Of a stretch of 64,000 nt of DNA, positions 1 through 57,842 are shown one piece after another. A program made the position numbers and the translations under genes. The DNA comes from Nemertoderma westbladi (taxonomy: Eukaryota > Animalia > Xenacoelomorpha), in NCBI GenBank assembly GCA_032718475.1, contig JAUCBJ010007457.1, forward strand, positions 27,705-91,704, written 5' to 3'. Each line of letters begins with the position of its first letter. Within the stretch, counting starts at the first letter, position 1. The notes under the pieces were generated by a model that was given only the letters and a program-made list of their open reading frames with translations, made no database searches and was not told where the DNA came from.

Positions 1-3000
1 AGTTCCATTATTACCCCTCAGTAAACCATTACTATCTATAACAATACTATTTCCTTCAGTGTCATTCAAAACTCCATTTGTATCAAAGAAAATGTTATCA
101 CCATTACTATCTTTAGTTATTTGTCCTGAAATCCCAATAAAATAGGATCCTGCATTTAAACTAAGATTATTATTATGTGCATCTTTTAAAGGAGAACCAC
201 GATCATTTATGATGCCATTCCTGTTGCATTGTAGTTTATGTCCTTCAGCATTATGCAGTCGGCCCTGAGAATCAATTATTACAGGCCGGCCATCAGAACT
301 CTTTAAACAATTGTTTTGCGAATTATATACCACACTTTCAAGAGTCTGCAGCCCTAAAGCAACAGCATTGCCATTAGGGTCTGTTAAAAGAGTCCCATCT
401 GGTTTCCTTAATTTACCATCTGGTGTCCTTTCCAAGGGCTCCCCATTTGAAGAGAATATCTGACCATCTTCTCTAACAACCACAGGTTTCCCATCTGAAC
501 CTACAACAGGATTACCATTACCATCAGTTAGTTCTTTAAAAGGAGAAACACCCGTTCTTGATTTTCTGCCCTTTGGATCAACTAACTTTACATCTGGTGC
601 TAATGTCATTGGATCACCCTTATTATTCTTGACATGCCCATCACCTCCAACAGTTACGGGTTTCCCATCAGGGCCTAAGATTGGTTTCCCATCACAGGAG
701 TACAATTTATTTCCACGACCAAGAGTTGCTGGTTTTCCATCAGGACCTAGAATAGGTTTCCCATTTTCATCTATAATTTCTCCTTTAGGATTTACTTTTA
801 GTGGTTTTCCATCTGAATCATATATTTGACCATTTGGAGCTAATGTCAATGGTCTGCCTTTCTCATCAACTAGTGGTTCTCCATTTGGATTGTAAAGCTG
901 AGTTCCAGGACCAAGTACAATAGGATTACCTTCTGCATCTAATACAGGACTTCCATCTGGATTCAACAACTTTCCATTAGGGTCTTTATTCAATTTATTT
1001 CCATTTGCATCGAATAAGTCTCCATTATCTCCAACAAGTATTGGATTTCCAGAATTATCTAAAATAGGGTTTTTATCTGAACCAATAAGAGGTTTCATAG
1101 TGTTTACTTTGGCAGGAGAGCCATCTGGATTAGTAATGGGATCACCGTTTGTATCAATCAATGTGCCATCTTTAGAAACTGCTACTGGTGATCCATCACT
1201 GTCAACAAGTTGTCCATTGTTATTCAATGATAATGGATGTCCTTTTTCATCAACAATTGGCTTGCCTTCAGGGCTATAAAGCAAGCTATCAGGACCTAAT
1301 GATATAGGCATACCTTCACTATCAACTAAGGGTTTACCATCTGGACCAAATAATTCACCATTCGAACCAATGCGTACTGGGTTACCATCAGCATCTTTTA
1401 ACTGACCATTTGGAGATAACATCAATGGTTTCCCATCAGGTCCAAGTATCGGTTCTCCATTTGAATTATATACCATGCTATCTGGTATTCCTGGGTCTAA
1501 AGCAACATCATTGCCATGAGGGTCTTTTAAAATGCTCCCATCTGGTTTCCTTAATTTACCATCTGGTGTCCTTTCCAAGGGCTCCCCATTTGAAGCGAAT
1601 ATCTGACCATCTTCTCTAACAACCACAGGTTTCCCATCCGAACCTACAACAGGATTGCCATTCTCATCAGTTAGTTCTTTAAAAGGAGAAACACCTGTTC
1701 TTGATTTTCTGCCCTTTGGATCAACTAACTTTCCATCTGGTGCTAATGTCATTGGATCACCCTTATTATTCTTTACACGCCCATCACCTCCAACAGTTAC
1801 AAGTTTCCCATCAGGGCCTAAGATTGGTTTCCCATCAGAGGAGTACAATTTATTTCCACGACCAAGAGTTGCTGGTTTTCCATCAGGACCTAGAATATGT
1901 TTCCCATTTTCATCGGTAATTTCTCCTTTAGGATTTACTTTTAGTGGTTTCCCATCTGAATCATATATTTGACCATTTGGAGCTAATGTCAATGGTCTGC
2001 CTTTCTCATCAACTAGTGGTTCTCCATTCGGATTGTAAAGCTGAGTTCCAGGACCAAGTACAATAGGATTACCTTCTGCATCTAATACAGGACTTCCATC
2101 TGGATTCAACAACTTTCCATTAGGGTCTTTATTCAATTTATTACCATTTGTATCGAATAAGTCTCCATTATCTCCAACAAGTATTGGATTTCCAGAGTTA
2201 TCTAAAATAGGGTTTTTATCCGAACCAATAAGAGGTTTCATAGTGTTTACTTTGGCAGGAGAGCCATCTGGATTAGTAATGGGATCACCGTTTGTATCAA
2301 TCAATGTGCCATCTTTAGAAACTGCTACTGGTGATCCATCACTGTCAACAAGTTGTCCATTGTTATTCAATGATATTGGATGTCCTTTTTCATCAACAAT
2401 TGGCTTGCCTTCAGGGCTATAAAGCAAGCTATCAGGACCTAATGATATAGGCATACCTTCACTATCAACTAAGGGTTTACCATCTGGACCAAATAATTCA
2501 CCATTGGAACCAATGCGTACTGGGTTACCATCAGCATCTTTTAACTGACCACTTGGAGATAACATCAATGGTTTCCCATCAGGTCCAAGTATCGGTTCTC
2601 CATTTGAATTATATACCATGCTATCTGGTATTCCTGGGTCTAAAGCAACATCATTGCCATGAGGGTCTTTTAAAATGCTCCCATCTGGTTTCCTTAATTT
2701 ACCATCTGGTGTCCTTTCCAAGGGCTCCCCATTTGAAGAGAATATCTGTCCATCTTCTCTAACAACCACAGGTTTCCCATCCGAACCTACAACAGGATTG
2801 CCATTCTCATCAGTTAGTTCTTTAAAAGGAGAAACACCTGTTCTTGATTTTCTGCCCTTTGGATCAACTAACTTTCCATCTGGTGCTAATGTCATTGGAT
2901 CACCCTTATTATTCTTGACATGCCCATCACCTCCAACAGTTATGGGTTTCCCATCAGGGCCTAAGATTGGTTTCCCATCACAGGAGTACAATTTATTTCC

Positions 3001-6000
3001 ACGACCAAGAGTTGCTGGTTTTCCATCAGGACCTAGAATATGTTTCCCATTTTCATCGATAATTTCTCCTTTAGGATTTACTTTTAGTGGTTTTCCATCT
3101 GAATCATATATTTGACCATTTGGAGCTAATGTCAATGGTCTGCCTTTCTCATCAACTAGTGGTTCTCCATTTGGATTGTAAAGCTGAGTTCCAGGACCAA
3201 GTACAATAGGATTACCTTCTGCATCTAATACAGGACTTCCATCTGGATTCAACAACTTTCCATTAGGGTCTTTATTCAATTTATTACCATTTGTATCAAA
3301 TAAGTCTCCATTATCTCCAACAAGTATTGGATTTCCAGAGTTATCTAAAATAGTGTTTTTATCCGAACCAATAAGAGGTTTCATAGTGTTTACTTTGGCA
3401 GGAGAGCCATCTGGATTAGTAATGGGATCACCGTTTGTATCAATCAATGTGCCATCTTTAGAAACTGCTACTGGTGATCCATCACTGTCAACAAGTTGTC
3501 CATTGTTATTCAATGATAATGGATGTCCTTTTTCATCAACAATTGGCTTACCATCAGGGCTATAAAGCAAGCTATCAGGACCTAATGATATAGGCATCCC
3601 TTCACTATCAACTAAGGGTTTACCATCTGGACCAAATAATTCACCATTGGAACCAATGCGTACTGGGTTACCATCAGCATCTTTTAACTGACCATTTGGA
3701 GATAACATCAATGGTTTCCCATCAGGTCCAAGTATCGGTTCTCCATTTGAATTATATACCATGCTATCTGGTATTCCTGGGTCTAAAGCAACATCATTGC
3801 CATGAGGGTCTTTTAAAATGCTCCCATCTGGTTTCCTTAATTTACCATCTGGTGTCCTTTCCAAGGGCTCCCCATTTGAAGAGAATATCTGACCATCTTC
3901 TCTAACAACCACAGGTTTCCCATCCGAACCTACAACAGGATTGCCATTCTCATCAGTTAGTTCTTTAAAAGGAGAAACACCTGTTCTTGATTTTCTGCCC
4001 TTTGGATCAACTAACTTTCCATCTGGTGCTAATGTCATTGGATCACCCTTATTATTCTTGACATGCCCATCACCTCCAACAGTTACGGGTTTCCCATCAG
4101 GGCCTAAGATTGGTTTCCCATCACAGGAGTACAATTTATTTCCACGACCAAGAGTTGCTGGTTTTCCATCAGGACCTAGAATAGGTTTCCCATTTTCATC
4201 GATAATTTCTCCTTTAGGATTTACTTTTAGCGGTTTCCCATCTGAATCATATATTTGACCGTTTGGAGCTAATGTCAATGGTCTGCCTTTCTCATCAACT
4301 AGTGGTTCTCCATTCGGATTGTAAAGCTGAGTTCCAGGACCAAGTACAATAGGATTACCTTCTGCATCTAATACAGGACTTCCATCTGGATTCAACAACT
4401 TTCCATTGGGGTCTTTATCAAGTTGATTTCCTTGAGAGTCACAAACAACCCCATCATCTGAAATAAATAGCGGTTTTCCATCTTGCCCAATGACGGGTGT
4501 ACCATTAGCATCAAGCAGAATAGCAGGTTTGTTTTCATTATCACTGTAAGGCACTGAAGAATCCATTCGTGGGTCATTAGAACTCAATGTTGCTGGCATT
4601 CCATCTGCTTGAGTCAGTCTCCTACCATCTGGGGTCATCAGCTCGCCATTTGGTGCCAAACTAATGTTTGAACCATCACTGTCCATTATTTGCCCATCCG
4701 GATTGATTGTTAGAACATCACCATTTGGGTTTTTAATAGGTTGACCATCGCTACCCAGTAAAGTATTGCCAGGTGGCAATTTTAATGGCTTTCCATCTTT
4801 TCCCAATATTGGTTTCCCATTGGACCCAATTATTTCCCCACCCGGCCCTATACTAACAGGTTTCATATCTGGTCCAATTATTTGACCATTGGGAGACATT
4901 ATTATGTTTTGACCCTTAGCATCAAGCAATGGTTGCCCATCTGGACCATAAACGTTTCTGCCTGGAATACTTTTCAAAGGAGCACCATTGGTTCCAGATG
5001 CTGCATTCCCATTATCATCTAAAATTAACCCAGTTTCTGGATCTCTCTTCAATATATTACCAGCTTCAGACATTAATGTTCCATCTTCCTTGAGAACTAT
5101 GGGTGAACCATCAGGTGCCAGGAGTGGCGTACCATCATCTGTGCATAATGTACCATCTGGTCGAACTGTAAGAGGTTTTCTATCAGGGCCATAGAGGGGC
5201 TGGCCTTGGTTGTCAAGTAGATTACCTTTTCTATCCTTACCAAAAGAGCCCTGTCTAGGTCTGCCTGGTTCAACTGGCTGTAAAATATCGCCGTTGCCAT
5301 TGACAATAGGTATTCCATCCGAATCGACTAGCTGACCATTAGGACCATGTTGTAGAGGTTCACCATCACCATCAAGAATTTCCCCATCTGGTGAAACTGA
5401 AAGTGGTTTACCATTTGATCCAATTAATGGAACTCCATCAGGCCCAAAGAGATGACAATCTTTACCAAGAATTAATGGGTCTCCCTCAGGGTTTAACAGA
5501 GGCGATCCATCTTCATACAGGAGTTCACCATCAGGCCCGATATGAATAGGTACTCCATTTGCATCATGCAGCTTACCATCTGATCCTATTGTAATGGGAT
5601 CAAAATTGCTATCAACAAGAGGAGAACCATCTGGACCAAACAAAGTATTTTGTGGTGACATTCCATGTGGAATACCTGATGGACCAGAAAGGGGTTGTCC
5701 ATCAGGTCCAACCAACTGCCCATTCCGCAATACATCCACAGGTGAACCATCACCTTGTTTAATCCGCCCATCTTTCCCAACACATAATGGTTGCCCATCA
5801 TTGCCATGTATCGGCTGTCCGTCAGGCCCATATATCCCACAATCTGGTCCCAAACTGATTGGCTTTCCATCTGGCCCCTTAATTGGCTTCCCAACATAGT
5901 CAGTAATCTCGCCATTTGGTCTGATCATTACTGGATGTCCATCTGGTCCTATAATTCTACCATCGGGAGTGATTGTTAATGGTTTACCATCGGGACCTAA

Positions 6001-6704
6001 TATCGGTTTACCATCTGGGCTGTAAAGTTTCGCCAATGGGGCAGTCGATAGAGGTTTCCCATTAACATCTAGTATTGGTTTACCATTTGCACCATATAAA
6101 TCACCTCCAGGACCAACATGTATTGGAGACCCATCTGAGTTGGTTAACTGTCCATCTGGATTTACTCTCAATGGGTTACCTGTAGAATCAACTAAAGGTT
6201 TCCCATCTGGTCCACTTAACCCACAATTAGGTCCAATACTAAGAGGGTGTCCATCTCTACCCACCAAAGGTTGTCCTTCATCATTCAGTAAAGCTCCAGA
6301 TGGGTCGACTTTAATTGGTTTACCATTGGCTTGTCGCAGTTGGCCATCTGGCCCTAATATGATTGGCTGTCCATTCTCATCTAGAAGGGGGTATCCATTA
6401 GGCCCGGTGACTACTCCAGTAGACCCTTGTTTGAGCGGGTCCCCCTCTGCATTGACCAACTGTTTCCCGGATGCATCAACCAGACCCCCATCAGGTCCAA
6501 CATACACTGGGTTCCCTTCATCATCTACAAGCCCTCCATCTGGGGCCTGCAGTATAAACTTCCCATCTGGTGTCTGTAATGGCTTCCCATCCTTCCCCAA
6601 TAGGGGATGGGTCCCAGGCCCCTTTCCCTTTGACCTAGCAGACTCCCTACGACTCATTTTCCTTAAAACAGACTCTTTTCGCTTTTTATCCACTTCAGAA
6701 GCAC
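1..6704 (-). CDS. Giant GPDG/DG/NG-repeat coding exon (at least 2,234 codons, open at the window edge); probably filamin exon 7
   Basis: Acceptor aattccatag at 6705, phase-compatible with the exon 6 donor. Reads GASEVDKKRKESVLRKMSRRESARSKGKGPGTHPLLGKDGKPLQTPDGK...GPDGKP... I saw no stop in this frame down to position 1. It is absent from the ORF track because the stop lies outside the window. The link to filamin is inferred from position, strand and phase. Confidence 0.85.
393..4418 (-). repeat. Coding tandem repeat, 1143-bp (381-aa) unit, about 3.5 near-identical copies
   Basis: Same sequence recurs at a 1143-bp offset, e.g. shadow ORFs at 1410, 2553 and 3696, and stops at 829, 1972, 3115 and 4258. 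Copies differ only by scattered substitutions with no frameshift. Confidence 0.95.
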
Positions 6705-7221
6705 CTATGGAATTCATATATTTATCAAGCACCAATGTATAAATAAGGTTATGGTATATCAAATTATTCTTAATATTAATAATCGTAGCTATGAGATGCA
6801 ATATCGACGACAATTAATCAAAATAATTACTTAAGATTTTTACTTACTTAATTTGACCTACTGAGTAATACTAGATGCAAGACATAATATTTGTGTACTA
6901 AGACATTATAACTATAGACTATAATAATTAAGATTATGAATAGTCAGACAAGGTTTCTATTATATTAGTTGTAATAATATCTGAGTAAACCGAATGTTTA
7001 AATTTATTATGTATATAATTTTAATATATCGACTAAACATTAACAAAATTAGGTTTTGCATAGTCTATGAGGGTCCTTGTCTCAGGGAAATCATTTTGAA
7101 ATGGAATTCAAAAATATAAATATATGATTGAATGACGTCTGACTTAGATATCATTAACAATAGAATTCTTGCGATCCTCTTGTAGAAACATGAATTATCC
7201 ATACCGAATAGGGCTACCTAC

Positions 7222-7422
7222 CTGGCGATATTCTAACAGAATATGGACTTTTTGGAATATTATCCCCGCCAAATGTAATCCCGATATTTCTAATACCAGA
7301 TGTTGTTGGTACGTAACGACATTCGTATATGTCTCCGTGGACTTTATTGAGTTTCATACGAGTTGTTTCAGATGAACCATCTTCATCAACAATATTCACT
7401 TCAACATGACCATTACCGGCAT
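7222..7422 (-). CDS. FLN: Filamin, coding exon 6 (second half of Ig repeat 2)
   Basis: Acceptor ttattcacag; DAGNGHVEVNIVDEDG...IYECRYVPTTSGIRNIGITFGGDNIPKSPYSVRISP fits the filamin repeat C-terminal pattern Y-x-P...F-G-G...I-P-x-S-P-Y; donor G|GTAGGT; 201 nt, phase 1-1. Confidence 0.92.
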
Positions 7423-7696: not shown

Positions 7697-10600
7697 ACAA
7701 AATCAGCTACTCCCTCAACCAAAGTACCAGCTACACCCACAACCAAAGTACCAGCTACACCCACAACCAAAGTACCAGCTACACCCTCAACCAAAGTATC
7801 AGCTACACCATCAACCAAAGTACCTGCTACACTATCAACCAAAGTACCAGCTACACCGTCAACCAAAGTACCAGCTACACCCTCAACCAAAGTACCAGCT
7901 ACACCATCAACCAAAGTACCAGCTACACCCTCAACCAAAGTACCTGCTACACTATCAACCAAAGTACCAGCTACACCGTCAACCAAAGTACCAGCTACAC
8001 CCTCAACCAAAGTATCAGCTACACCATCAACCAAAGTACCTGCTACACTATCAACCAAAGTACCAGCTACACCGTCAACCAAAGTACCAGCTACACCCTC
8101 AACCAAAGTACCAGCTACACCATCAACCAAAGTACCAGCTACACCATCAACCAAAGTACCTGCTACACTATCAACCAAAGTACCAGCTACACCGTCAACC
8201 AAAGTACCAGCTACACCCTCAACCAAAGTACCAGCTACACCATCAACCAAAGTACCAGCTACACCATCAACCAAAGTACCTGCTACACTATCAACCAAAG
8301 TACCAGCTACACCGTCAACCAAAGTACCAGCTACACCCTCAACCAAAGTACCAGCTACACCCTCAACCAAAGTACCAGCTACACCCTCAACCAAAGTACC
8401 AGCTACACCCTCAACCAAAGTACCAGCTACACCCTCAACCAAAGTACCAGCTACACCCTCAACCAAAGTACCAGCTACACCCTCAACCAAAGTACCAGCT
8501 ACACCCTCAACCAAAGTATCAGCTACACCCTCAACCAAAGTACCAGCTACACCATCAACCAAAGTACCAGCTACACCCTCAACCAAAGTACCAGCTACAC
8601 CCTCAACCAAAGTACCAGCTACACCCTCAACCAAAGTACCAGCTACACCCTCAACCAAAGTACCAGCTACACCCTCAACCAAAGTACCAGCTACACTCTC
8701 AACCAAAGTACCAACTACACCCTCAACCAAAGTACCAGCTACACCTTTCAAACAAAGTGCCAGCTACACCATCAACCAAAGTACCAGCTACACCCTCAAC
8801 CAAAGTACCAGCTACACCCTCAACCAAAGTACCAGCTACACCCTCAACCAAAGTACCAGCTACACTCTCAATCAAAGTACCAACTACACCCTCAACCAAA
8901 GTACCAGCTACACACTCAAACAAAATACCAGCTACACCCTCAAACAAAATACCAGCTACACTCTCAACCAAAGTACCAGCTACACCCTCAACCAAAGTAC
9001 CTGCTACACCATCAACCAAAGTACGAGCTACACCATCAACCAAAGTACCAGCTACACCATCAACCAAAGTACCAGCTACACCATCAACCAAAGTACCAGC
9101 TACACCATCAACCAAAGTACCAGCTACACCATCAACCAAAGTACCAGCTACACCATCAACCAAAGTACCAGCTACACCCTCAACCAAAGTACCAGCTACA
9201 CCATCAACCAAAGTACCAGCTACACCATCAACCAAAGTACCAGCTACACCCTCAACCAAAGTACCAGCTACACCCTCAACCAAAGTACCAGCTACACCAT
9301 CAACCAAAGTACCAGCTACACCCTCAACCAAAGTACCAGCTACACCCTCAACCAAAGTACCAGCTACACCCTCAACCAAAGTACCAGCTACACTCTCAAT
9401 CAAAGTACCAACTACACCCTCAACCAAAGTACCAGCTACACACTCAAACAAAGTACCAGCTACACCATCAACCAAAGTACCAGCTACACCATCAACCAAA
9501 GTACCAGCTACACCCTCAACCAAAGTACCAGCTACACCCTCAACCAAAGTACCAGCTACACCATCAACCATAGTACCAGCTACACCATCAACCAAAGTAC
9601 CAGCTACACCCTCAACCAAAGTACCAGCTACACCCTCAAACAAAATACCAGCTACACTCTCAACCAAAGTACCAGCTACACCCTCAACCAAAGTACCTGC
9701 TACACCATCAACCAAAGTACCAGCTACACCATCAACCAAAGTACCAGCTACACCCTCAACCAAAGTACCAGCTACACCATCAACCAAAGTACCAGCTACA
9801 CCATCAACCAAAGTACCAGCTACACCCTCAACCAAAGTACCAGCTACACCATCAACCAAAGTACCAGCTACACCATCAACCAAAGTACCAGCTACACCCT
9901 CAACCAAAGTACCAGCTACACCCTCAACCAAAGTACCAGCTACACCATCAACCAAAGTACCAGCTACACCATCAACCAAAGTACCAGCTACACCATCAAC
10001 CAAAGTACCAGCTACACCCTCAACCAAAGTACCAGCTACACCCTCAACCAAAGTACCAGCTACACCCTCAACCAAAGTACCAGCTACACTCTCAATCAAA
10101 GTACCAACTACACCCTCAACCAAAGTACCAGCTACACACTCAAACAAAATACCAGCTACACCCTCAAACAAAATACCAGCTACACTCTCAACCAAAGTAC
10201 CAGCTACACCCTCAACCAAAGTACCAGCTACACCTTCAACCAAAGTACCAGCTACACCCTCAAACAAAATACCAGCTACACTCTCAACCAAAGTACCAGC
10301 TACACCCTCAACCAAAGTACCAGCTACACCCTCAACCAAAGTACCAGCTACACCCTCAACCAAAGTACCAGCTACACTCTCAATCAAAGTACCAACTACA
10401 CCCTCAACCAAAGTACCAGCTACACACTCAAACAAAATACCAGCTACACCCTCAAACAAAATACCAGCTACACTCTCAACCAAAGTACCAGCTACACCCT
10501 CAACCAAAGTACCTGCTACACCCCCAACCAAAGTACCAGCTACACTCTCAACCAAAGTACAAGCTACACCCCCAACCAAAGTACCAGCTACACCCTCAAC

Positions 10601-13600
10601 CAAAGTACCAGCTACACCCCCAACCAAAGTACAAGCTACACCCTCAACCAAAGTACCTGCTACACCATCAACCAAAGTACCTGCTACACCATCAACCAAA
10701 GTACCAGCTACACCATCAACCGAAGTATCAGCTACACCATCAACCAAAGTATCAGCTACTCCCTCAACCAAAGTACCAGCTACACCATCAACCAAAGTAC
10801 CAGCTACACCCTCAACCAAAGTACCAGCTACACCATCAAACAAAGTACCAGCTACACCCTCAACCAAAGTACCAGCTACACCCTCAACCAAAGTATCAGC
10901 TACACCCTCAACCAAAGTACCAGCTACACCCTCAACCAAAGTACCAGCTACACCGTCAACCAAAGTACCAGCTACACTCTCAACCAAAGTACCAGCTACA
11001 CCGTCAACCAAAGTACCAGCTACACTCTCAACCAAAGTACCAGCTACACCGTCAACCAAAGTACCAGCTACACTCTCAACCAAAGTACCAGCTACACTCT
11101 CAACCAAAGTACCTGCTACACCATCAACCAAAGTACCAGCTACACCATCAACCAAAGTACCAGCTACACCATCAACCAAAGTACCAGCTACACCGTCAAC
11201 CAAAGTACCAGCTACACTCTCAACCAAAGTACCAGCTACACCGTCAACCAAAGTACCAGCTACACTCTCAACCAAAGTACCAGCTACACTCTCAACCAAA
11301 GTACCTGCTACACCATCAACCAAAGTACCAGCTACACCATCAACCAAAGTACCAGCTACACTCTCAACCAAAGTACCAGCTACACCGTCAACCAAAGTAC
11401 CAGCTACACTCTCAACCAAAGTACCAGCTACACTCTCAACCAAAGTACCTGCTACACCATCAACCAAAGTACCAGCTACACCATCAACCAAAGTACCAGC
11501 TACACCATCAACCAAAGTACCTGCTACACCATCAACCAAAGTACCTGCTACACCATCAACCAAAGTACCAGCTACACCATCAACCAAAGTACCAGCTACA
11601 CCCCCAACCAAAGTACCAGCTACACCATCAAACAAAGTACCAGCTACACCCTCAACCAAAGTACCAGCTACACCCTCAACCAAAGTATCAGCTACACCCT
11701 CAACCAAAGTACCAGCTACACCCTCAACCAAAGTACCAGCTACACCCTCAACCAAAGTACCAGCTACACCCTCAACCAAAGTACCAGCTACACCATCAAC
11801 CAAAGTACCAGCTACACCATCAACCAAAGTACCAGCTACACCCTCAACCAAAGTATCAGCTACACCCCCAACCAAAGTACCAGCTACACCCTCAACCAAA
11901 GTACCAGCTACACCCTCAACCAAAGTATCAGCTACACCCTCAACCAAAGTACCAGCTACACCATCAACCAAAGTACCAGCTACACCATCAACCAAAGTAC
12001 CAGCTACACCATCAACCAAAGTACCAGCTACACCCCCAACCGAAGTACCAGCTACACCCTCAACCAAAGTACAAGTTACACCCCCAACCAAAGTACCAGC
12101 TACACCCTCAACCAAAGTACCAGCTACACCCCCAACCAAAGTACAAGCTACACCCTCAACCAAAGTACCAGCTACACCATCAACCAAAGTACCAGCTACA
12201 CCCTCAACCAAAGTACCAGCTACACCCTCAACCAAAGTACCAGCTACACCCTCAACCAAAGTACCAGCTACACCATCAACCATAGTACCAGCTACACCCT
12301 CAACCAAAGTACCAGCTACACCATCAACCATAGTACCAGCTACACCCTCAACCAAAGTACCTGCTACACCATCAACCAAAGTACGAGCTACACCATCAAC
12401 CAAAGTACCAGCTACACCATCAACCAAAGTACCAGCTACACCATCAACCAAAGTACCAGCTACACCATCAACCAAAGTACCAGCTACACCATCAACCAAA
12501 GTACCAGCTACACCATCAACCAAAGTACCAGCTACACCCTCAACCAAAGTACCAGCTACACCATCAACCAAAGTACCAGCTACACCATCAACCAAAGTAC
12601 CAGCTACACCCTCAACCAAAGTACCAGCTACACCCTCAACCAAAGTACCAGCTACACCATCAACCAAAGTACCAGCTACACCCTCAACCAAAGTACCAGC
12701 TACACCCTCAACCAAAGTACCAGCTACACCCTCAACCAAAGTACCAGCTACACTCTCAATCAAAGTACCAACTACACCCTCAACCAAAGTACCAGCTACA
12801 CACTCAAACAAAGTACCAGCTACACCATCAACCAAAGTACCAGCTACACCATCAACCAAAGTACCAGCTACACCCTCAACCAAAGTACCAGCTACACCCT
12901 CAACCAAAGTACCAGCTACACCATCAACCATAGTACCAGCTACACCATCAACCAAAGTACCAGCTACACCCTCAACCAAAGTACCAGCTACACCCTCAAA
13001 CAAAATACCAGCTACACTCTCAACCAAAGTACCAGCTACACCCTCAACCAAAGTACCTGCTACACCATCAACCAAAGTACCAGCTACACCATCAACCAAA
13101 GTACCAGCTACACCCTCAACCAAAGTACCAGCTACACCATCAACCAAAGTACCAGCTACACCATCAACCAAAGTACCAGCTACACCCTCAACCAAAGTAC
13201 CAGCTACACCATCAACCAAAGTACCAGCTACACCATCAACCAAAGTACCAGCTACACCCTCAACCAAAGTACCAGCTACACCCTCAACCAAAGTACCAGC
13301 TACACCATCAACCAAAGTACCAGCTACACCATCAACCAAAGTACCAGCTACACCATCAACCAAAGTACCAGCTACACCCTCAACCAAAGTACCAGCTACA
13401 CCCTCAACCAAAGTACCAGCTACACCCTCAACCAAAGTACCAGCTACACTCTCAATCAAAGTACCAACTACACCCTCAACCAAAGTACCAGCTACACACT
13501 CAAACAAAATACCAGCTACACCCTCAAACAAAATACCAGCTACACTCTCAACCAAAGTACCAGCTACACCCTCAACCAAAGTACCAGCTACACCTTCAAC

Positions 13601-16600
13601 CAAAGTACCAGCTACACCCTCAAACAAAATACCAGCTACACTCTCAACCAAAGTACCAGCTACACCCTCAACCAAAGTACCAGCTACACCCTCAACCAAA
13701 GTACCAGCTACACCCTCAACCAAAGTACCAGCTACACTCTCAATCAAAGTACCAACTACACCCTCAACCAAAGTACCAGCTACACACTCAAACAAAATAC
13801 CAGCTACACCCTCAAACAAAATACCAGCTACACTCTCAACCAAAGTACCAGCTACACCCTCAACCAAAGTACCTGCTACACCCCCAACCAAAGTACCAGC
13901 TACACTCTCAACCAAAGTACAAGCTACACCCCCAACCAAAGTACCAGCTACACCCTCAACCAAAGTACCAGCTACACCCCCAACCAAAGTACAAGCTACA
14001 CCCTCAACCAAAGTACCTGCTACACCATCAACCAAAGTACCTGCTACACCATCAACCAAAGTACCAGCTACACCATCAACCGAAGTATCAGCTACACCAT
14101 CAACCAAAGTATCAGCTACTCCCTCAACCAAAGTACCAGCTACACCATCAACCAAAGTACCAGCTACACCCTCAACCAAAGTACCAGCTACACCATCAAA
14201 CAAAGTACCAGCTACACCCTCAACCAAAGTACCAGCTACACCCTCAACCAAAGTATCAGCTACACCCTCAACCAAAGTACCAGCTACACCCTCAACCAAA
14301 GTACCAGCTACACCGTCAACCAAAGTACCAGCTACACTCTCAACCAAAGTACCAGCTACACCGTCAACCAAAGTACCAGCTACACTCTCAACCAAAGTAC
14401 CAGCTACACCGTCAACCAAAGTACCAGCTACACTCTCAACCAAAGTACCAGCTACACTCTCAACCAAAGTACCTGCTACACCATCAACCAAAGTACCAGC
14501 TACACCATCAACCAAAGTACCAGCTACACCATCAACCAAAGTACCAGCTACACCGTCAACCAAAGTACCAGCTACACTCTCAACCAAAGTACCAGCTACA
14601 CCGTCAACCAAAGTACCAGCTACACTCTCAACCAAAGTACCAGCTACACTCTCAACCAAAGTACCTGCTACACCATCAACCAAAGTACCAGCTACACCAT
14701 CAACCAAAGTACCAGCTACACTCTCAACCAAAGTACCAGCTACACCGTCAACCAAAGTACCAGCTACACTCTCAACCAAAGTACCAGCTACACTCTCAAC
14801 CAAAGTACCTGCTACACCATCAACCAAAGTACCAGCTACACCATCAACCAAAGTACCAGCTACACCCTCAACCAAAGTACCAGCTACACCCTCAACCAAA
14901 GTACCAGCTACACCATCAACCAAAGTACCAGCTACACCATCAACCAAAGTACCAGCTACACCCTCAACCAAAGTATCAGCTACACCCCCAACCAAAGTAC
15001 CAGCTACACCCTCAACCAAAGTACCAGCTACACCCTCAACCAAAGTATCAGCTACACCCTCAACCAAAGTACCAGCTACACCATCAACCAAAGTACCAGC
15101 TACACCATCAACCAAAGTACCAGCTACACCATCAACCAAAGTACCAGCTACACCCCCAACCGAAGTACCAGCTACACCCTCAACCAAAGTACAAGTTACA
15201 CCCCCAACCAAAGTACCAGCTACACCCTCAACCAAAGTACCAGCTACACCCCCAACCAAAGTACAAGCTACACCCTCAACCAAAGTACCAGCTACACCAT
15301 CAACCAAAGTACCAGCTACACCCTCAACCAAAGTACCAGCTACACCCTCAACCAAAGTACAAGCTACACCCCCAACCAAAGTACCAGCTACACCCTCAAC
15401 CAAAGTACCAGCTACACCCCCAACCAAAGTACAAGCTACACCCTCAACCAAAGTACCTGCTACACCATCAACCAAAGTACCTGCTACACCATCAACCAAA
15501 GTACCAGCTACACCATCAACCAAAGTACCAGCTACACCATCAACCAAAGTACCAGCTACACCCTCAACCAAAGTACCTGCTACACCATCAACCAAAGTAC
15601 CAGCTACACCATCAACCAAAGTACCAGCTACACCCCCAACCAAAGTACAAGCTACACCCCCAACCAAAGTACCAGCTACACCATCAACCAAAGTACCAGC
15701 TACACCCTCAACCAAAGTACCAGCTACACCCTCAACCAAATTCCAAAGTACAAGCTACACTCTCAACCAAAGTACCTGCTACACCATCAACCAAAGTACC
15801 AGCTACACCATCAAACAAAGTACCAGCTACACCCTCAACCAAAGTACCAGCTACACCCTCAACCAAAGTACAAGCTACACTCTCAACCAAAGTACCTGCT
15901 ACACCCCCAACCAAAGTACAAGCTACACCCCCAACCGAAGTACCAGCTACACCCTCAACCAAAGTACCAGCTACACCCCCAACCAAAGTACAAGCTACAC
16001 CCTCAACCAAAGTACCTGCTACACCATCAACCAAAGTACCAGCTACACTCTAAACCAATGTACCAGCTACACTCCAAACCAATGTACCAGCTACACTCTC
16101 AACCAAAGTCCCAGCTACACCCCCAACCAAAGTACCAGCTACACCCTCAAACATAATACCAGCTACACCCTCAACCAAAGTATCAGCTACACCCCCAACC
16201 AAAGTACAAGCTACACCCTCAACCAAAGTACCAGCTACACCATCAACCAAAGTACCAGCTACACCCCCAACCAAAGTACCAGCTACACCCTCAACCAAAG
16301 TACCAGCTACACCCCCAACCAAAGTACAAGCTACACCCTCAACCAAAGTACCTGCTACACCATCAACCAAAGTACCTGCTACACCATCAACCAAAGTACC
16401 AGCTACACCATCAACCAAAGTACCAGCTACACCATCAACCAAAGTACCAGCTACACCCTCAACCAAAGTACCTGCTACACCATCAACCAAAGTACCTGCT
16501 ACACCATCAACCAAAGTACCAGCTACACCATCAACCAAAGTACCAGCTACACCATCAACCAAAGTACCAGCTACACCATCAACCAAAGTACCAGCTACAC

Positions 16601-19600
16601 CCTCAACCAAAGTACCAGCTACACCATCAACCAAAGTACCAGCTACACCCTCAACCAAAGTACCAGCTACACCCTCAACCAAAGTATCAGCTACACCCTC
16701 AACCAAAGTACCAGCTACACCCTCAACCAAAGTACCAGCTACACCCTCAACCAAAGTACCAGCTACACCCTCAACCAAAGTACCAGCTACACCATCAACC
16801 AAAGTACCAGCTACACCATCAACCAAAGTACCAGCTACACCCTCAACCAAAGTATCAGCTACACCCCCAACCAAAGTACCAGCTACACCCTCAACCAAAG
16901 TACCAGCTACACCATCAACCAAAGTACCTGCTACACCATCAACCAAAGTACCAGCTACACCATCAACCAAAGTACCAGCTACACCATCAACCAAAGTACC
17001 AGCTACACCCTCAACCAAAGTATCAGCTACACCCCCAACCAAAGTACCAGCTACACCCTCAACCAAAGTACCAGCTACACCCTCAACCAAAGTACAAGCT
17101 ACACCCTCAACCAAAGTATCAGCTACACCCTCAACCAAAGTACCAGCTACACCCTCAACCAAAGTACCAGCTACACCCTCAACCAAAGTACCTGCTACAC
17201 CCCCAACCAAAGTACAAGCTACACCCCCAACCGAAGTACCAGCTACACCCTCAACCAAAGTACCTGCTACACCATCAACCAAAGTACCAGCTACACCATC
17301 AACCAAAGTACCAGCTACACCCTCAACCAAAGTACCAGCTACACCCCCAACCAAAGTACAAGCTACACCCCCAACCGAAGTACCAGCTACACCCTCAACC
17401 AAAGTACCTGCTACACCATCAACCAAAGTACCAGCTACACCATCAACCAAAGTACCAGCTACACCATCAACCAAAGTACCAGCTACACCATCAAACAAAG
17501 TACCAGCTACACCATCAACCAAAGTACCAGCTACACCCTCAACCAAAGTACCAGCTACACCCCCAACCAAAGTACCAGCTACACCATCAACCAAAGTACC
17601 AGCTACACCCTCAACCAAAGTACCAGCTACACCCTCAACCAAAGTACAAGCTACACCCTCAACCAAAGTACCAGCTACACCCTCAACCAAAGTATCAGCT
17701 ACACCATCAACCAAAGTACCAGCTACACCCTCAACCAAAGTATCAGCTACACCCCCAACCGAAGTACCAGCTACACCCTCAACCAAAGTACCTGCTACAC
17801 CATCAACCAAAGTACCAGCTACACCATCAACCAAAGTACCAGCTACACCATCAACCAAAGTACCAGCTACACCATCAAACAAAGTACCAGCTACACCATC
17901 AACCAAAGTACCAGCTACACCCTCAACCAAAGTACCAGCTACACCCTCAACCAAAGTACCAGCTACACCCTCAACCAAAGTACCAGCTACACCCTCAACC
18001 AAAGTACCAGCTACACCCTCAACCAAAGTACCAGCTACACCCTCAACCAAAGTACCAGCTACACCATCAACCAAAGTACCAGCTACACCATCAACCAAAG
18101 TACCAGCTACACCCTCAACCAAAGTATCAGCTACACCCCCAACCAAAGTACCAGCTACACCCTCAACCAAAGTACCAGCTACACCATCAACCAAAGTACC
18201 TGCTACACCATCAACCAAAGTACCAGCTACACCATCAACCAAAGTACCAGCTACACCATCAACCAAAGTACCAGCTACACCCTCAACCAAAGTACCAGCT
18301 ACACCCTCAACCAAAGTACCAGCTACACCCTCAACCAAAGTACCAGCTACACCCTCAACCAAAGTACCAGCTACACCCTCAACCAAAGTACCAGCTACAC
18401 CCTCAACCAAAGTACCAGCTACACCCTCAACCAAAGTACCAGCTACACCCTCAACCAAAGTACCAGCTACACCCTCAACCAAAGTACAAGCTACACCCTC
18501 AACCAAAGTACCAGCTACACCCTCAACCAAAGTACCTGCTACACCATCAACCAAAGTACCAGCTACACCATCAACCAAAGTACCAGCTACACCCTCAACC
18601 AAAGTACCAGCTACACCCCCAACCAAAGTACAAGCTACACCCCCAACCGAAGTACCAGCTACACCCTCAACCAAAGTACCTGCTACACCATCAACCAAAG
18701 TACCAGCTACACCATCAACCAAAGTACCAGCTACACCATCAACCAAAGTACCAGCTACACCATCAAACAAAGTACCAGCTACACCATCAACCAAAGTACC
18801 AGCTACACCCTCAACCAAAGTACCAGCTACACCCCCAACCAAAGTACAAGCTACACTCTCAACCAAAGTACCTGCTACACCATCAACCAAAGTACCAGCT
18901 ACACCATCAACCAAAGTACCAGCTACACCCTCAACCAAAGTACCAGCTACACCCTCAACCAAAGTACCAGCTACACCCTCAACCAAAGTACCAGCTACAC
19001 CCTCAACCAAAGTACCAGCTACACCCTCAACCAAAGTACCAGCTACACCCTCAACCAAAGTACCAGCTACACCCTCAACCAAAGTACCAGCTACACCCTC
19101 AACCAAAGTACCAGCTACACCATCAACCAAAGTACCAGCTACACCTCAACCAAAGTACCAGCTACACCCTCAACCAAAGTACCAGCTACACCATCAACCA
19201 AAGTACCAGCTACACCCTCAACCAAAGTACCAGCTACACCCTCAACCAAAGTACCAGCTACACCCTCAACCAAAGTACCAGCTACACCCTCAACCAAAGT
19301 ACCAGCTACACCCTCAACCAAAGTACCAGCTACACCCTCAACCAAAGTACCAGCTACACCCTCAACCAAAGTACCAGCTACACCCTCAACCAAAGTACCA
19401 GCTACACCCTCAACCAAAGTACCAGCTACACCTTCAACCAAAGTACCAGCTACACCCTCAACCAAAGTACCAGCTACACCCTCAACCAAAGTACCAGCTA
19501 CACCATCAACCAAAGTATCAGCTACACCCTCAACCAAAGTACCAGCTACACTCTCAACCAAAGTACCAGCTACATCATCAACCAAAGTACCAGCTACACC

Positions 19601-22600
19601 CTCAACCAAAGTACCAGCTACACCCTCAACCAAAGTACCAGCTACACCCTCAACCAAAGTACCAGCTACACCCTCAACCAAAGTACCAGCTACACCCTCA
19701 ACCAAAGTACCAGCTACACCCTCAACCAAAGTACCAGCTACACCCTCAACCAAAGTCCAAAGTACAAGCTACACTCTCAACCAAAGTACCTGCTACACCA
19801 TCAACCAAAGTACCAGCTACACCATCAAACAAAGTACCAGCTACACCCTCAACCAAAGTACCAGCTACACCCTCAACCAAAGTACCAGCTACACCCTCAA
19901 CCAAAGTATCAGCTACACCCTCAACCAAAGTACCAGCTACACCCTCAAACAAAGTACCAGCTAAACCATCAACAAAAGTACCAGCTACACTCTCAACCAA
20001 AGTACCAGCTACACTCTCAACCAAAGTACCAGCTACACCCTCAACCAAAGTACCAGCTACACCCTCAACCAAAGTACCAGCTACACCCTCAACCAAAGTA
20101 CCAGCTACACCCTCAACCAAAGTCCAAAGTACAAGCTACACTCTCAACCAAAGTACCTGCTACACCATCAACCAAAGTACCAGCTACACCATCAAACAAA
20201 GTACCAGCTACACCCTCAACCAAAGTACCAGCTACACCATCAAACAAAGTACCAGCTACACCCTCAACCAAAGTACCAGCTACACCCTCAACCAAAGTAC
20301 CAGCTACACCCCCAACCAAAGTACAAGCTACACTCTCAACCAAAGTACCTGCTACACCATCAACCAAAGTACCAGCTACACCCTCAACCAAAGTACCAGC
20401 TACACCCTCAACCAAAGTATCAGCTACACCCTCAACCAAAGTACCAGCTACACCCTCAACCAAACTACCAGCTACACCCTCAACCAAAGTACCAGCTACA
20501 CCCTCAACCAAAGTACCAGCTACACCCTCAACCAAAGTATCAGCTACACCCTCAACCAAAGTACCAGCTACACCATCAACCAAAGTACCAGCTACACCAT
20601 CAACCAAAGTACCAGCTACACCCTCAACCAAAGTACCAGCTACACCCTCAACCAAAGTCCAAAGTACAAGCTACACTCTCAACCAAAGTACCTGCTACAC
20701 CCTCAACCAAAGTACCAGCTACACCATCAAACAAAGTACCAGCTACACCCTCAACCAAAGTACCAGCTACACCCTCAACCAAAGTACAAGCTACACCCCC
20801 AACCGAAGTACCAGCTACACCCTCAACCAAAGTACCTGCTACACCATCAACCAAAGTACCAGCTACACCATCAACCAAAGTACCAGCTACACCATCAACC
20901 AAAGTACCAGCTACACCATCAAACAAAGTACCAGCTACACCATCAACCAAAGTACCAGCTACACCCTCAACCAAAGTACCAGCTACACCCCCAACCAAAG
21001 TACAAGCTACACTCTCAACCAAAGTACCTGCTACACCATCAACCAAAGTACCAGCTACACCATCAACCAAAGTACCAGCTACACCCTCAACCAAAGTACC
21101 AGCTACACCCTCAACCAAAGTACCAGCTACACCCTCAACCAAAGTACCAGCTACACCCTCAACCAAAGTATCAGCTACACCCTCAACCAAAGTACCAGCT
21201 ACAACCTCAACCAAACTACCAGCTACACCCTCAACCAAAGTACCAGCTACACCTTCAACCAAAGTACCAGCTACACCCTCAACCAAAGTACCAGCTACAC
21301 CCTCAACCAAAGTACCAGCTACACCATCAACCAAAGTATCAGCTACACCCTCAACCAAAGTACCAGCTACACTCTCAACCAAAGTACCAGCTACATCATC
21401 AACCAAAGTACCAGCTACACCCTCAACCAAAGTACCAGCTACACCCTCAACCAAAGTACCAGCTACACCCTCAACCAAAGTACCAGCTACACCCTCAACC
21501 AAAGTACCAGCTACACCCTCAACCAAAGTACCAGCTACACCCTCAACCAAAGTACCAGCTACACCCTCAACCAAAGTCCAAAGTACAAGCTACACTCTCA
21601 ACCAAAGTACCTGCTACACCATCAACCAAAGTACCAGCTACACCATCAAACAAAGTACCAGCTACACCCTCAACCAAAGTACCAGCTACACCCTCAACCA
21701 AAGTACCAGCTACACCCTCAACCAAAGTATCAGCTACACCCTCAACCAAAGTACCAGCTACACCCTCAAACAAAGTACCAGCTAAACCATCAACAAAAGT
21801 ACCAGCTACACTCTCAACCAAAGTACCAGCTACACTCTCAACCAAAGTACCAGCTACACCCTCAACCAAAGTACCAGCTACACCCTCAACCAAAGTACCA
21901 GCTACACCCTCAACCAAAGTACCAGCTACACCCTCAACCAAAGTCCAAAGTACAAGCTACACTCTCAACCAAAGTACCTGCTACACCATCAACCAAAGTA
22001 CCAGCTACACCATCAAACAAAGTACCAGCTACACCCTCAACCAAAGTACCAGCTACACCATCAAACAAAGTACCAGCTACACCCTCAACCAAAGTACCAG
22101 CTACACCCTCAACCAAAGTACCAGCTACACCCCCAACCAAAGTACAAGCTACACTCTCAACCAAAGTACCTGCTACACCATCAACCAAAGTACCAGCTAC
22201 ACCCTCAACCAAAGTACCAGCTACACCCTCAACCAAAGTATCAGCTACACCCTCAACCAAAGTACCAGCTACACCCTCAACCAAACTACCAGCTACACCC
22301 TCAACCAAAGTACCAGCTACACCCTCAACCAAAGTACCAGCTACACCCTCAACCAAAGTATCAGCTACACCCTCAACCAAAGTACCAGCTACACCATCAA
22401 CCAAAGTACCAGCTACACCATCAACCAAAGTACCAGCTACACCCTCAACCAAAGTACCAGCTACACCCTCAACCAAAGTCCAAAGTACAAGCTACACTCT
22501 CAACCAAAGTACCTGCTACACCCTCAACCAAAGTACCAGCTACACCATCAAACAAAGTACCAGCTACACCCTCAACCAAAGTACCAGCTACACCCTCAAC

Positions 22601-27086: not shown

Positions 27087-27327
27087 CGGTGGCGACAATC
27101 TCGAAGTATGTTGGGTCATTGACCTTCAACCCGGTGGGTTCCAGACCCGGTCCTCTCGCGATCACCTTGCTCGCGTCCCCCGGCGCGTCCGATATGTTCA
27201 CTGTGTAGGGACTCTTGGTCGTCTCTTCCTTAGCGAAACTCACGCTGACCAGATGAGGACCAGCGGTTTGGGATAGATAAGTAACGCTGTAAGTTTTGTT
27301 GCGGTCGTTATTAAACTCAACTTTAGC
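27087..27327 (-). CDS. FLN: Filamin, coding exon 5 (end of Ig repeat 1, start of repeat 2)
   Basis: Acceptor tttatatttag; AKVEFNNDRNKTYSVTYLSQTAGPHLVSVSFAKEETTKSPYTVNISDAPGDASKVIARGPGLEPTGLKVNDPTYFEIVAT; donor G|GTAAGT; 241 nt, ends in phase 1. Confidence 0.93.
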
Positions 27328-27507: not shown

Positions 27508-27645
27508 CCCGATCTCTTTCCCATTGGGGTCCTTAACCGAAACGACGACTTCGCCGTTACCTGCACTGAATGTCTCCACAGTGAACCGAGAGGGCTGGCC
27601 AACCGCGCAACCTTCTGGTTCAACACCCGGCCCATAGACCCTCAC
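27508..27645 (-). CDS. FLN: Filamin, coding exon 4 (first half of Ig-like repeat 1)
   Basis: Acceptor gtgttctttag; VRVYGPGVEPEGCAVGQPSRFTVETFSAGNGEVVVSVKDPNGKEIG with the YGPG motif; donor GGG|GTTAGT; 138 nt. Confidence 0.93.
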
Positions 27646-28277: not shown

Positions 28278-28406
28278 CTTTGATGGATTTGTTCTGGGTC
28301 TCAGTGGAGCCCCAGGTCGCAGTTTCGCATGGGGGAATTGACTCAGATACGTCATCATGGAGAGATCATCGACTTTTGGGTTAGTCATGTCTTCCGGTGA
28401 TATTAA
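28278..28406 (-). CDS. FLN: Filamin, coding exon 3 (end of CH2)
   Basis: Acceptor tttattttcag; [43 protein letters not shown]; donor AAG|GTGAGT; 129 nt, phase 0-0. Confidence 0.95.
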
Positions 28407-28536: not shown

Positions 28537-30076
28537 TGAAACACTCACTTTTCCTACACCAACCCGTGGAACACTCAACCATTCCTACACCAACCTGTGA
28601 ACACTCAACCATTCCTACACCAACCTATGAACACTCAGCCATTCCTACACCAACCTGTGAACACTCAACCATTCCTACACCAACCTGTGGAACACTCAAC
28701 CAGTCCTACACCAACCTGTGAACACTCAACCATTCCTACACCAACCTGTGGAACACTCAGCCATTCCTACACCAACCTGTGGAACACTCAACCATTCCTA
28801 CACCAACCTGTGGAAACTCAGCCATTCCTTCACCAACCTGTGAACACTCAACCATTCCTACACCAACCTGTGAACACTCAACCATTCCTACACCAACCTG
28901 TGGAAACTCAGCCATTCCTTCACCAACCTGTGAACACTCAACAATTCCTACACCAACCTGTGAAAACTCAACCATTCCTACACCAACCTGTGGAAACTCA
29001 GCCATTCCTTCACCAACCTGTGAACACTCAACCATTCCTACACCAACCTGTGAACACTCAACCATTCCTACACCAACCTGTGGAACACTCAACCATTCCT
29101 ACACCAACCTGTGGAAACTCAGCCATTCCTTCACCAACCTGTGAACACTCAACCATTCCTACACCAACCTGTGAACACTCAACCATTCCTACACCAACCT
29201 GTGGAAACTCAGCCATTCCTTCACCAACCTGTGAACACTCAACCATTCCTACACCAACCTGTGAACACTCAACCATTCCTACACCAACCTGTGGAAACTC
29301 AGCCATTCCTTCACCAACCTGTGAACACTCAACCATTCCTACACCAACCTGTGAACACTCAACCATTCCTACACCAACCTGTGGAACACTCAACCATTCC
29401 TACACCAACCTGTGAAAACTCAACCATTCCTACACCAACCTGTGGAACACTCAGCCATTCCTACTCCAACCTGTGGAAACTCAGCCATTCCTACACCAAC
29501 CTGTGGAACACTCAACCATTCCTACACCAACCTGTGGAACACTCAACCATTCCTACACCAACCTGTGGAAACTCAGCCATTCCTTCACCAACCTGTGAAC
29601 ACTCAACCATTCCTACACCAACCTGTGAACACTCAACCATTCCTACACCAACCTGTGGAACACTCAACCATCCCTACACCAACCTGTGGAACACTCAACC
29701 ATTCCTACACCAACCTGTGAAAACTCAACCATTCCTACACCAACCTGTGGAACACTCAACCATTCCTACACCAACCTGTGAACACTCAACCATTCCTACA
29801 CCAAACTGTGGAACACTCAGCCATTCCTACACCAACATGTGGAACACTCAACCATTCCTACATCAACCTGTGGAACCTGTCAACCATTCCTACATCAACC
29901 TGTGGAACACTCAATCATTCCTACACCAAACTGTGGAACACTCAACCATTCCTACACCAACCTGTGGAACACTCAACCCTTCCTACACCAACCTGTGGAA
30001 CACTCAACCATTCCTACACTAACCTGTTGAACACTCAACCATTCCTACACCAACCTGTGGAACACTCAGCCATTCC
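28537..30076. repeat. 30/31-bp minisatellite, about 50 units, whose unit contains the exon 2 3' end and 5' splice site
   Basis: Plus-strand unit GAACACTCAACCATTCCTACACCAACCTGT(G). Sense strand AGGAATGGYTGAGTGTTC(C)ACAG|GTTGGTGT is the exon 2/intron 2 junction. Contains a 90-bp higher-order unit and a 301-bp duplication. Confidence 0.95.
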
Positions 30077-30419
30077 TCGGCTAGTTGCATGGCTTCCTCG
30101 GCGTTCCGGAATGGTTCCTTGGGGTCCCATTTGTCCCAATCGGGACAGAGTCCCGGCGCCAACGCGTCGACAAGGGAACCGATTGTTTTACCGTCGTTCC
30201 AATCACTCGTAAAGTTACCGATCGCCCGGTCGGGTACTTTGCTTTGTACCCATGCCAACAGCCGTTGTTTGGGAGTCAGTGTAGACCCTTTATCCTTATT
30301 GGTACGTGTTACATCGTCATCTCCATCGTACATAGGCATTGAGATTGAGTAATGTAATATCAATGTCCAAATTAAACCAAGAATTAGTTTCACTTTGCCT
30401 TCAACAATATCTGTACTAT
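30055..30419 (-). CDS. FLN: Filamin, coding exon 2 (end of CH1, linker, most of CH2)
   Basis: Acceptor ttgcgttacag at 30420; G+AT completes Asp. [29 protein letters not shown]...[15 protein letters not shown]...[31 protein letters not shown]...[13 protein letters not shown]. Donor CAG|GTTGGT at 30055/30054; 365 nt, ends in phase 0. Confidence 0.95.
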
Positions 30420-57484: not shown

Positions 57485-57842
57485 CGATATTAACGATCTT
57501 CACATTCTCCCGTTCTAGAAACTTCATCGCCGTCGAAACATTCTCTAGTTTCATCTGTCTGAACGTCGGCCGTTTGTTATAACGTCCGACATCTTTACCC
57601 GACAGAACTTCCAGCAGATTCAATAGAATCAAGCCGTCCTGTAGGCCCTGGTCGAGATCATAGATGCGTTTATTGATACCCTTGAGGTGTTCGTTGCACC
57701 ATCGCGTGAAGGTGTTCCGTTGGATACGCTTCCACGCCGCGTCTTCCGATAATTCGCGTTCAGCCGCCATTAGTCTCTCTTCATCGTATTCTTCCTCGCT
57801 ATCACTGGCATCCCTTTCCACTGTCGCCGGACTAATATCCAT
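57485..57842 (-). CDS. FLN: Filamin, coding exon 1 (N-terminus and most of calponin-homology domain CH1)
   Basis: ATG at 57842-57840; MDISPATVE...[28 protein letters not shown]...[22 protein letters not shown]...[29 protein letters not shown] matches the filamin CH1 signature. Donor G|GTGAGT at 57485/57484 (phase 1). An acceptor ttttcttggcag just upstream (exon starts 57859) implies an unseen upstream exon. Confidence 0.95.

Follow-up and report, generated by a model that had tools for sequence, protein, structure and literature searches.

The geometry of filamins sets actin-filament spacing and force sensing, and these proteins are usually taught as an actin-binding head followed by rods of immunoglobulin-like (Ig) repeats with short hinges. 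In the canonical members (human FLNA, FLNB and FLNC, Cheerio and FLN-1) the domains CH1 and CH2 run straight into Ig1 and Ig2, as they do in the gene described here, which lies on the minus strand of a stretch of 64,000 nucleotides (nt) from Nemertoderma westbladi (contig JAUCBJ010007457.1, positions 27,705 to 91,704; hereafter the window, whose own numbering is used for all coordinates). The canonical members differ, however, in what stands behind Ig2, for here exon 7 encodes at least 231 kDa of non-Ig sequence. Multiple isoforms arising by splicing and from internal starts are normal for canonical filamins, and those described differ by the number of Ig repeats or by hinges (PMC7714767, PMC3143143, PMC5521747); the isoforms of Cheerio span 90 to 260 kD, with the largest at 240-260 kD (PMC5521747). 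Long stretches of low homology separate Ig repeats in C. elegans FLN-2 and Drosophila Jitterbug, large filamins that also have exons which are usually skipped, and FLN-2A reaches 3,747 residues, but the accessible part of the source describes no repeat of the GPDG type found in exon 7 (PMC3143143). A survey of the literature on giant or GPDG-insert filamins, covering titles and the beginnings of abstracts without supplements and most subscription papers, returned no multi-thousand-residue ordered repeat behind Ig2. Variation in filamin size is already known from FLN-2, Jitterbug and Cheerio, and it is the ordered giant repeat behind Ig2 that we did not find described.

The giant exon and its junction to the filamin head

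Read from its AG acceptor at 6705/6704 to the edge of the window, exon 7 contains 2,234 codons and 0 stops, whereas the other two minus-strand frames contain 160 and 283 stops. The stop-to-stop frame (6813->1) measures 2,271 codons, and when the bases of its first 760 codons were shuffled 1,000 times, no open stretch exceeded 169 codons. The exon that completes Ig2 closes with a phase-1 donor (CCAG/GTAGGT at 7222), and the phase-1 acceptor of exon 7 (TTCCATAG/GT) follows 517 nt on; joined over six GT-AG introns, the seven exons give 2,712 residues with 0 stops. An earlier note on this DNA had proposed the stop-free minus-strand frame of at least 2,234 codons, the two phase-1 splice sites and an in-frame ATG at 6657, 16 codons into exon 7, and all of these were confirmed. 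Its wider claim, that a giant exon was inserted into a filamin after Ig2, stood as far as an in-phase coding exon is concerned, by Pfam matches and GT-AG joins; the insertion as such is not seen, as the exon leaves the window.

Exon 7 encodes a real protein under purifying selection. It contains a 1,143-nt block in 3.57 recent copies, which differ by 21 silent and 22 replacement variants, where neutrality would predict 23-29% silent; the corresponding omega among these 381-residue copies is 0.32-0.43 (binomial p 0.0002-0.005), an estimate that gene conversion among recent copies could blur. Fifteen older units, compared in register, are 48/69/36% identical at the three codon positions, and their four-fold sites under conserved residues agree at chance level (0.30 vs 0.31), that is, their silent sites are saturated. 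Taken together, omega, the codon-position identities and the saturated silent sites indicate that the repeat is old, has been kept at the protein level and has lately been lengthened by block duplication. On the same selection and codon-position evidence we rejected the idea of a satellite artefact, though the window is rich in true satellites.

Judged by its sequence, the head of the gene is that of an ordinary two-CH filamin of the FLNA/Cheerio/FLN-1 type. Residues 25-283 of human FLNA align contiguously with its CH1-CH2 actin-binding domain, two Filamin Ig repeats follow (Pfam PF00630 on exons 4-6), and exon 6 finds its alignment partner in FLNA 411-474. Our search for filamin homologues covered proteins of 213-2,000 residues and listed 120 matches. 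Identity to animal filamins reaches 69% for exon 2 among the matches listed and 58-81% with the top-ranked filamin matches for exon 3, and the head as a whole is 59% identical to the Limulus filamin-A-like protein over 448 residues. In a tree of 43 rows, 42 of them drawn from the 120 listed matches, the head sits on a long branch (0.63) outside both protostome groups and groups with chordates, in a sampling that included no named echinoderm, cnidarian or xenacoelomorph rows. With respect to base composition, exons 6 and 7 are AT-richer than exons 1-5 (G+C 38% and 38-47% vs 47-58%), and the G+C share at third codon positions is 0.23 in exon 7 vs 0.49 in exons 1-6.

Table 1. Exons of the filamin gene and segments of exon 7, in window coordinates
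Feature	Position	Strand	Basis or remark
Coding exon 1: start codon and CH1	57485..57842	-	Pfam CH E 4.8e-14; GT donor, phase 1
Exon 2: end of CH1 and CH2	30055..30419	-	Pfam CH E 3.6e-16; AG/GT
Exon 3: end of CH2 and linker	28278..28406	-	AG/GT
Exon 4: first half of Ig repeat 1	27508..27645	-	Pfam Filamin E 1e-7
Exon 5: end of Ig1 and start of Ig2	27087..27327	-	Pfam Filamin E 1.6e-14
Exon 6: remainder of Ig2, closing with a phase-1 donor	7222..7422	-	Pfam Filamin E 5.7e-9
Intron between exons 6 and 7, 517 nt, GT-AG	6705..7221	-	donor and acceptor in phase 1
Giant exon 7, at least 2,234 codons, ~231 kDa	1..6704	-	open at window edge
Exon 7, basic opening linker of 32 residues, with in-frame ATG 6657	6607..6704	-	sequence
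Exon 7, old diverged repeats: 8-residue A and 16-residue B modules, 64-residue unit	4432..6606	-	module tiling; lag
Exon 7, recently amplified in tandem: 1,143-nt (381-residue, six-unit) block, 3.57 copies	353..4431	-	
Exon 7, more diverged, proline-poor units that leave the window	1..352	-	sequence; last ~120 residues

The introns of the gene carry further repeats. Intron 1 houses an intact-looking Pao/BEL long terminal repeat retrotransposon on the plus strand (46022-53980), with a single frame of 1,961 codons (47107-52989) that encodes A17 peptidase, reverse transcriptase and integrase domains; since its 826-bp terminal repeats are 99.9% identical and it interrupts a 26-bp satellite (33308-46023, 53977-56861), the insertion is very recent. 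A 30-bp satellite of ~51 copies (28531-30077) takes in the end of exon 2 together with its splice donor and extends into intron 2, and the intron splitting Ig2 is filled by ~776 copies of a 24-bp minisatellite (7704-26424). As the 24-bp unit contains no stop on the plus strand, that strand is open in frames of up to 4,088 codons whose translations look mucin-like; we read these long frames at 7.7-26.4 kb as non-coding rather than as genes. Finally, reading through the exon 6 donor meets a stop two codons on, and poly(A)-like hexamers lie at 7025 and 7008 on the minus strand; a short isoform of the head plus two Ig repeats could arise in this way, although hexamers of this kind are frequent in AT-rich introns.

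Module grammar and predicted fold of the repeat

The linker that opens exon 7 contains KRKES and RRES, which we take to be kinase-A-like sites. Beyond it the exon is composed of two short modules, A of 8 residues (P-h-h-x-x-D/N-G-x) and B of 16 (P-h-x-h-x-P-D/N-G-x-h-x-x-x-D-G-x), which together tile 91% of exon 7 and 92% of its unique part, compared with 38% (at most 46%) in 30 shuffles. They follow one another in the order B-A-B-B-A within a unit of 64 residues, which is also the strongest lag; the units often pair into lobes of ~128 residues with short linkers, and six of them make up the 381-residue block. So far the exon amounts to ~34 units and 231 kDa, with 55 PDG, 33 DGKP and 113 [DN]xxG motifs. 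The 381-residue unit and the GPDG-type modules, both of which the earlier note had pointed out, were borne out with 3.57 copies at 353-4431 and 26 GPDG motifs, respectively. The 381-residue copies are ~92-100% identical per 50-residue block, and across units that are only 39% identical the spacing of 7/8/9 residues is exact and the hydrophobic positions are fixed. Glycine, proline, aspartate and asparagine account for 46% of the residues, Phe for 1.0% and Tyr for 1.3%, and Trp is absent; the net charge is -91, and there is no hydrophobic segment (maximum Kyte-Doolittle value over 19 residues 0.78), which fits a cytoplasmic protein.

To a segment of 248 residues, supplied with a 10-row self-alignment, AlphaFold assigned a mean predicted local distance difference test score (pLDDT) of 77.8, with all five models at 73.7-77.8. 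The model consists of short beta-strands and bridges only, contains no helix and is of low confidence at the linker 117-126. It lends support to the earlier suggestion of beta-hairpins, and exon 7 is accordingly predicted to fold into all-beta beads of ~60 residues with looser linkers between them. Since the weak fold matches found with VIA-align are confined to blocks of about this size (1-60, 61-123 and 189-248), there may well be one bead per 64-residue unit. A titin PEVK-type spring, on the other hand, is dominated by P, E, V and K and has no fixed fold. The proposal of a titin-like elastic element is not supported in this sense, as these four residues make up only 28% of exon 7 and the model is folded; a spring-like role as such is still compatible with these data.

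Comparisons with solved structures assign no fold. Foldseek matches did not exceed a template modelling (TM) score of 0.19 for the single-sequence model or 0.17 for the alignment-based one, and VIA-align found no chain with Z >=5 either among 48,161 (best 3.1, root-mean-square deviation (rmsd) 2.4, 53 aligned) or among 976 (best 3.5, rmsd 3.3, 62 aligned); we did not accept its weak beta-trefoil rows as a fold assignment, and 7ZCU was not among the chains listed. Sequence comparison with solved structures places the light-harvesting LH2 gamma subunit first (7ZCU chain S, E 2.3e-6). Its repeats are described as an extended ribbon that lacks regular secondary structure (PMC9618040), and exon 7 may likewise take an extended form. 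The Pfam matches on exon 7 (Bflower, Tox-GHH2 and others) are read as artefacts of summing over repeats because no single stretch passes alone; PF21784, for example, collects 96 bits with 0 stretches passing. Exon 7 does have the [DNEQ]xxG hairpin-tip motif of the Beta-flower (PF21784/PF21785), by virtue of its [DN]xxG motifs. A Beta-flower is in addition a closed symmetric barrel of 8-12 strands in which aromatic residues form a network, in many cases with a helix at its centre (PMC10584680); the model of exon 7 shows short bridges and no helix, and with the Phe and Tyr shares given above and no Trp the repeat may or may not belong to this family. Searches of the ESM Atlas with the repeat gave no usable match, and a metagenome scan of 412 candidate stretches gave two loci; the first (L001) is a short match of 37% lying within a long frame to which it bears no relation, and the second (L002) has the same match.

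A candidate optional exon and the alternatives to it

What the locus itself establishes is that the frame is open, that the GT-AG junctions are in phase, that the protein is under purifying selection and follows a module grammar, and that a 381-residue block was recently amplified. As to what the exon is for, we lean, by a little, towards an optional exon that gives rise to a giant filamin with a folded-bead spacer between head and Ig rod. Exon 7 would then be included in the mRNA after Ig2, a phase-1 donor downstream of it would return splicing to Ig3, and the ordinary isoform would skip it. Inclusion would roughly double the protein and place ~35 or more small beads, predicted to be beta-hairpins, behind the actin-binding head and ahead of the remaining Ig rod, so that a single splice choice would change its reach. 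With such a spacer the two heads of a dimer could extend to a much greater distance from each other or, alternatively, from the membrane- and partner-binding, dimerising C-terminal repeats. It is conceivable that it serves in tissue under large strain, for example muscle or its attachments, and that its length is adjusted through the gain of entire blocks of 64 or 381 residues.

The behavior of the same junction in other filamins is consistent with an optional exon. It could be parsed in 64 of the 120 listed filamins; Ig2 leads directly into Ig3 at the standard distance in 54 of them, inserts of 41, 64, 64, 96 and 139 residues occur in five (plaice, gecko, Macrostomum, Taenia and Schistosoma bovis; P0294, P0306, P0280, P0246, P0329), and a further five, with distances of 121-151, look like parsing misses (two inspected). 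Insert-free counterparts are found in a second Macrostomum lignano model (P0289) and in S. mattheei (P0318). Because the Ig2-Ig3 junction thus varies in both vertebrates and flatworms, as judged from gene models, a cassette is favoured. These inserts share the junction with exon 7 but measure 41-139 residues, against at least 2,234 residues with an ordered grammar. Human FLNA presumably has a phase-1 intron and a neuronal poison exon at Ig2-Ig3 too, which our searches did not confirm. That FLNA has a poison exon is stated in the accessible text of one source, which gives no position for it (PMC13542418).

Several points weigh against the optional exon. First, the far end of exon 7 and any Ig3 exon fall outside the window, and the exon 7 acceptor has the lowest pyrimidine share of the six acceptors (0.50, in a range of 0.50-0.68). 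Second, the Ig2-Ig3 inserts elsewhere are of low complexity, mostly Pro- or Gln-rich and not GPDG, and all of them are gene models; a repeat of the exon 7 type after Ig2 occurs in 0 of the 120 listed filamins (213-2,000 residues searched). Searches with the repeat itself returned 1, 86 and 209 matches (best 150 of the 209 listed), and a CH domain, sought with exon 1 and exon 2 as queries, was found in 0 of the 211 repeat-bearing matches. The two proteins among them that do combine the repeat with filamin repeats, P0055 and P0068, have it elsewhere in the chain, and both are gene calls, as yet unverified, in which no CH was seen. Third, the overall shape of the repeat, rod or cluster, is not fixed by the AlphaFold model (predicted TM score 0.42), the single-sequence model is weak (pLDDT 57.6), and the role as a spacer is purely our inference.

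Of the alternatives, the one that survives best, though we consider it unlikely, retains the splice to Ig2 and makes exon 7 terminal, either as an alternative last exon or as the end of a truncated paralogue. Its product, CH1-CH2-Ig1-Ig2 with a giant tail and no dimerisation repeat, would act as an actin-anchored tether or scaffold and not as a cross-linker. In its favour, the last ~120 residues in the window are more diverged and proline-poor, no downstream exon is visible within the window, and C. elegans FLN-1B and FLN-2B are described as keeping the actin-binding domain without C-terminal repeats (PMC3143143). However, the Ig2-Ig3 inserts of other filamins are followed by Ig3, Ig repeats likewise resume beyond the long repeats of P0055 and P0068, and the head does not depart from the ordinary FLNA/Cheerio type.

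It is also improbable, in our estimation, that exon 7 belongs to the filamin but acts as an unstructured or reversibly unfolding entropic spring, PEVK- or ribbon-like. An exact 7/8/9 spacing and a 64-residue grammar, kept across 39%-identical units with their hydrophobic positions fixed, are hardly expected of such a spring, and neither the pLDDT of 78 of the alignment-based model nor the P+E+V+K content agrees with it; what does agree are the large share of glycine, proline, aspartate and asparagine, the net charge, the extended ribbon formed by the closest solved match (PMC9618040) and the lack of a fold match at Z 5. Finally, a separate same-strand transcript (a nested gene or a headless internal-promoter isoform) that starts from ATG 6657 or from a first exon hidden within an upstream intron is very doubtful, for in spite of that in-frame ATG, the weak acceptor and the existence of worm and fly filamin isoforms without the actin-binding domain (PMC3143143, PMC5521747), a phase-matched filamin donor lies only 517 nt away with the frame open across the junction, and the signal peptide of a matrix protein like nematode DIG-1 is missing; a transcript of this kind and the optional exon can, moreover, coexist.

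Relatives of the repeat in other proteins

The matches of the repeat include nematode DIG-1, bacterial TrbI/DotG-like proteins, a protein 4.1 of the snail Physella, P0089, which is plakin-like by eye only, and the 2 of the 211 repeat-bearing matches that have filamin repeats, namely P0055 with six Pfam stretches and P0068 with four. As a control the order of modules was shuffled 30 times per relative, where beating the shuffles speaks for a shared module order and not for descent. Both P0055 (575 vs at most 531) and P0068 (276 vs at most 242) beat every shuffle, and bacterial P0088 (328 vs at most 332) and Varroa P0071 (363 vs at most 369) are borderline. Protein 4.1 scored 358 vs 354 +/- 16, P0089 530 vs 524 +/- 8 and DIG-1 337 vs 351 +/- 21, the last compared with only 88 +/- 11 after shuffling of residues and 114 for the reversed sequence. 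DIG-1, protein 4.1 and P0089 therefore share only the short module with exon 7, and such a module could have arisen independently.

P0055 and P0068 resemble the present gene in that filamin repeats and similar long repeats occur in one called protein, and in both of them the Ig repeats resume after the long repeats. In P0055, whose repeat period of 67/134 is near the 64/128 of exon 7, the repeats appear inside an Ig repeat, and the Ig repeats are only 26-30% like those of other filamins; in P0068 they stand ahead of the C-terminal half of a filamin of arthropod type (58.5% to Limulus 1358-1751). An h-x-G-P-D-G-like turn is present in filamin Ig repeats themselves, 45-49 residues before the repeat end in 73 of 123 matches, and exact GPDG occurs in 16 of the 120 listed filamin proteins. 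As a speculation, the exon 7 repeat may have arisen from this C-D 'GPDG' turn of filamin's own Ig fold, which the repeats of P0055 seem to adjoin.

The Physella acuta protein (XP_059167298.1), misnamed 'mesocentin-like', is of the protein 4.1/coracle type; ~1,100 residues of DG-turn repeats separate the region next to its FERM domain from its C-terminal domain. Its RefSeq isoforms (P0007, P0332-P0334) differ by up to 278 residues within the repeat region and may, by analogy, offer a parallel for length tuned by splicing. Like P0055 and P0068, it unites cytoskeletal linker domains with 500-2,000 residues of DG-turn modules in one chain; similar repeats thus already sit, unnamed, in other linker proteins. 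The 16-residue module spacing of exon 7 recurs in bacterial TrbI/DotG-like proteins (P0088; PF03743) and in the Rhodopseudomonas LH2 gamma subunit (7ZCU). Many of the TrbI/DotG-like matches, 1,500-2,900 residues long, bear B-A-B arrays of DG turns in mid-protein, possibly as long periplasmic spacers. Both kinds of protein are bacterial and belong to other cellular settings, the likeness of P0088 in module order is borderline, and the similarity is not evidence of descent.

The likeness to DIG-1, which the earlier note had raised, proved real at the level of the short module, and homology beyond the module was not upheld, as the shuffled order scores equally. DIG-1/mesocentin (P0001) resembles exon 7 in that GPDG/DG-turn modules extend over thousands of its residues (E 2.8e-22, HHalign probability 98.4), but it is a matrix protein with Ig, FN3, VWA and EGF domains and a 145/73 period, and its secreted architecture differs from that of the present gene, where CH domains and filamin Ig repeats stand upstream and exon 7 has no hydrophobic leader. 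DIG-1 keeps neurons and glia intact under strain (PMC8544517, PMC11151937), and in the accessible part of one source its central region is described as being without known function (PMC8544517). The repeat of exon 7 is unusually regular, and a single piece of 64 or 128 residues should be tractable to make, solve and pull, which would also inform the unexplained repeat regions of DIG-1 and of the snail protein 4.1. It is possible, and we put it forward tentatively, that in animals cytoskeletal linkers (protein 4.1, a plakin and, in at least three lineages, filamin) have been lengthened time and again by a portable beta-hairpin bead repeat, which in filamin may have grown from its own C-D 'GPDG' turn. 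Exon 7 would then be a titin-style ruler tuned by tandem amplification, the same module would fill the centre of DIG-1, and the 64-residue bead would for the first time offer a tractable model of the structure and mechanics of all such proteins.

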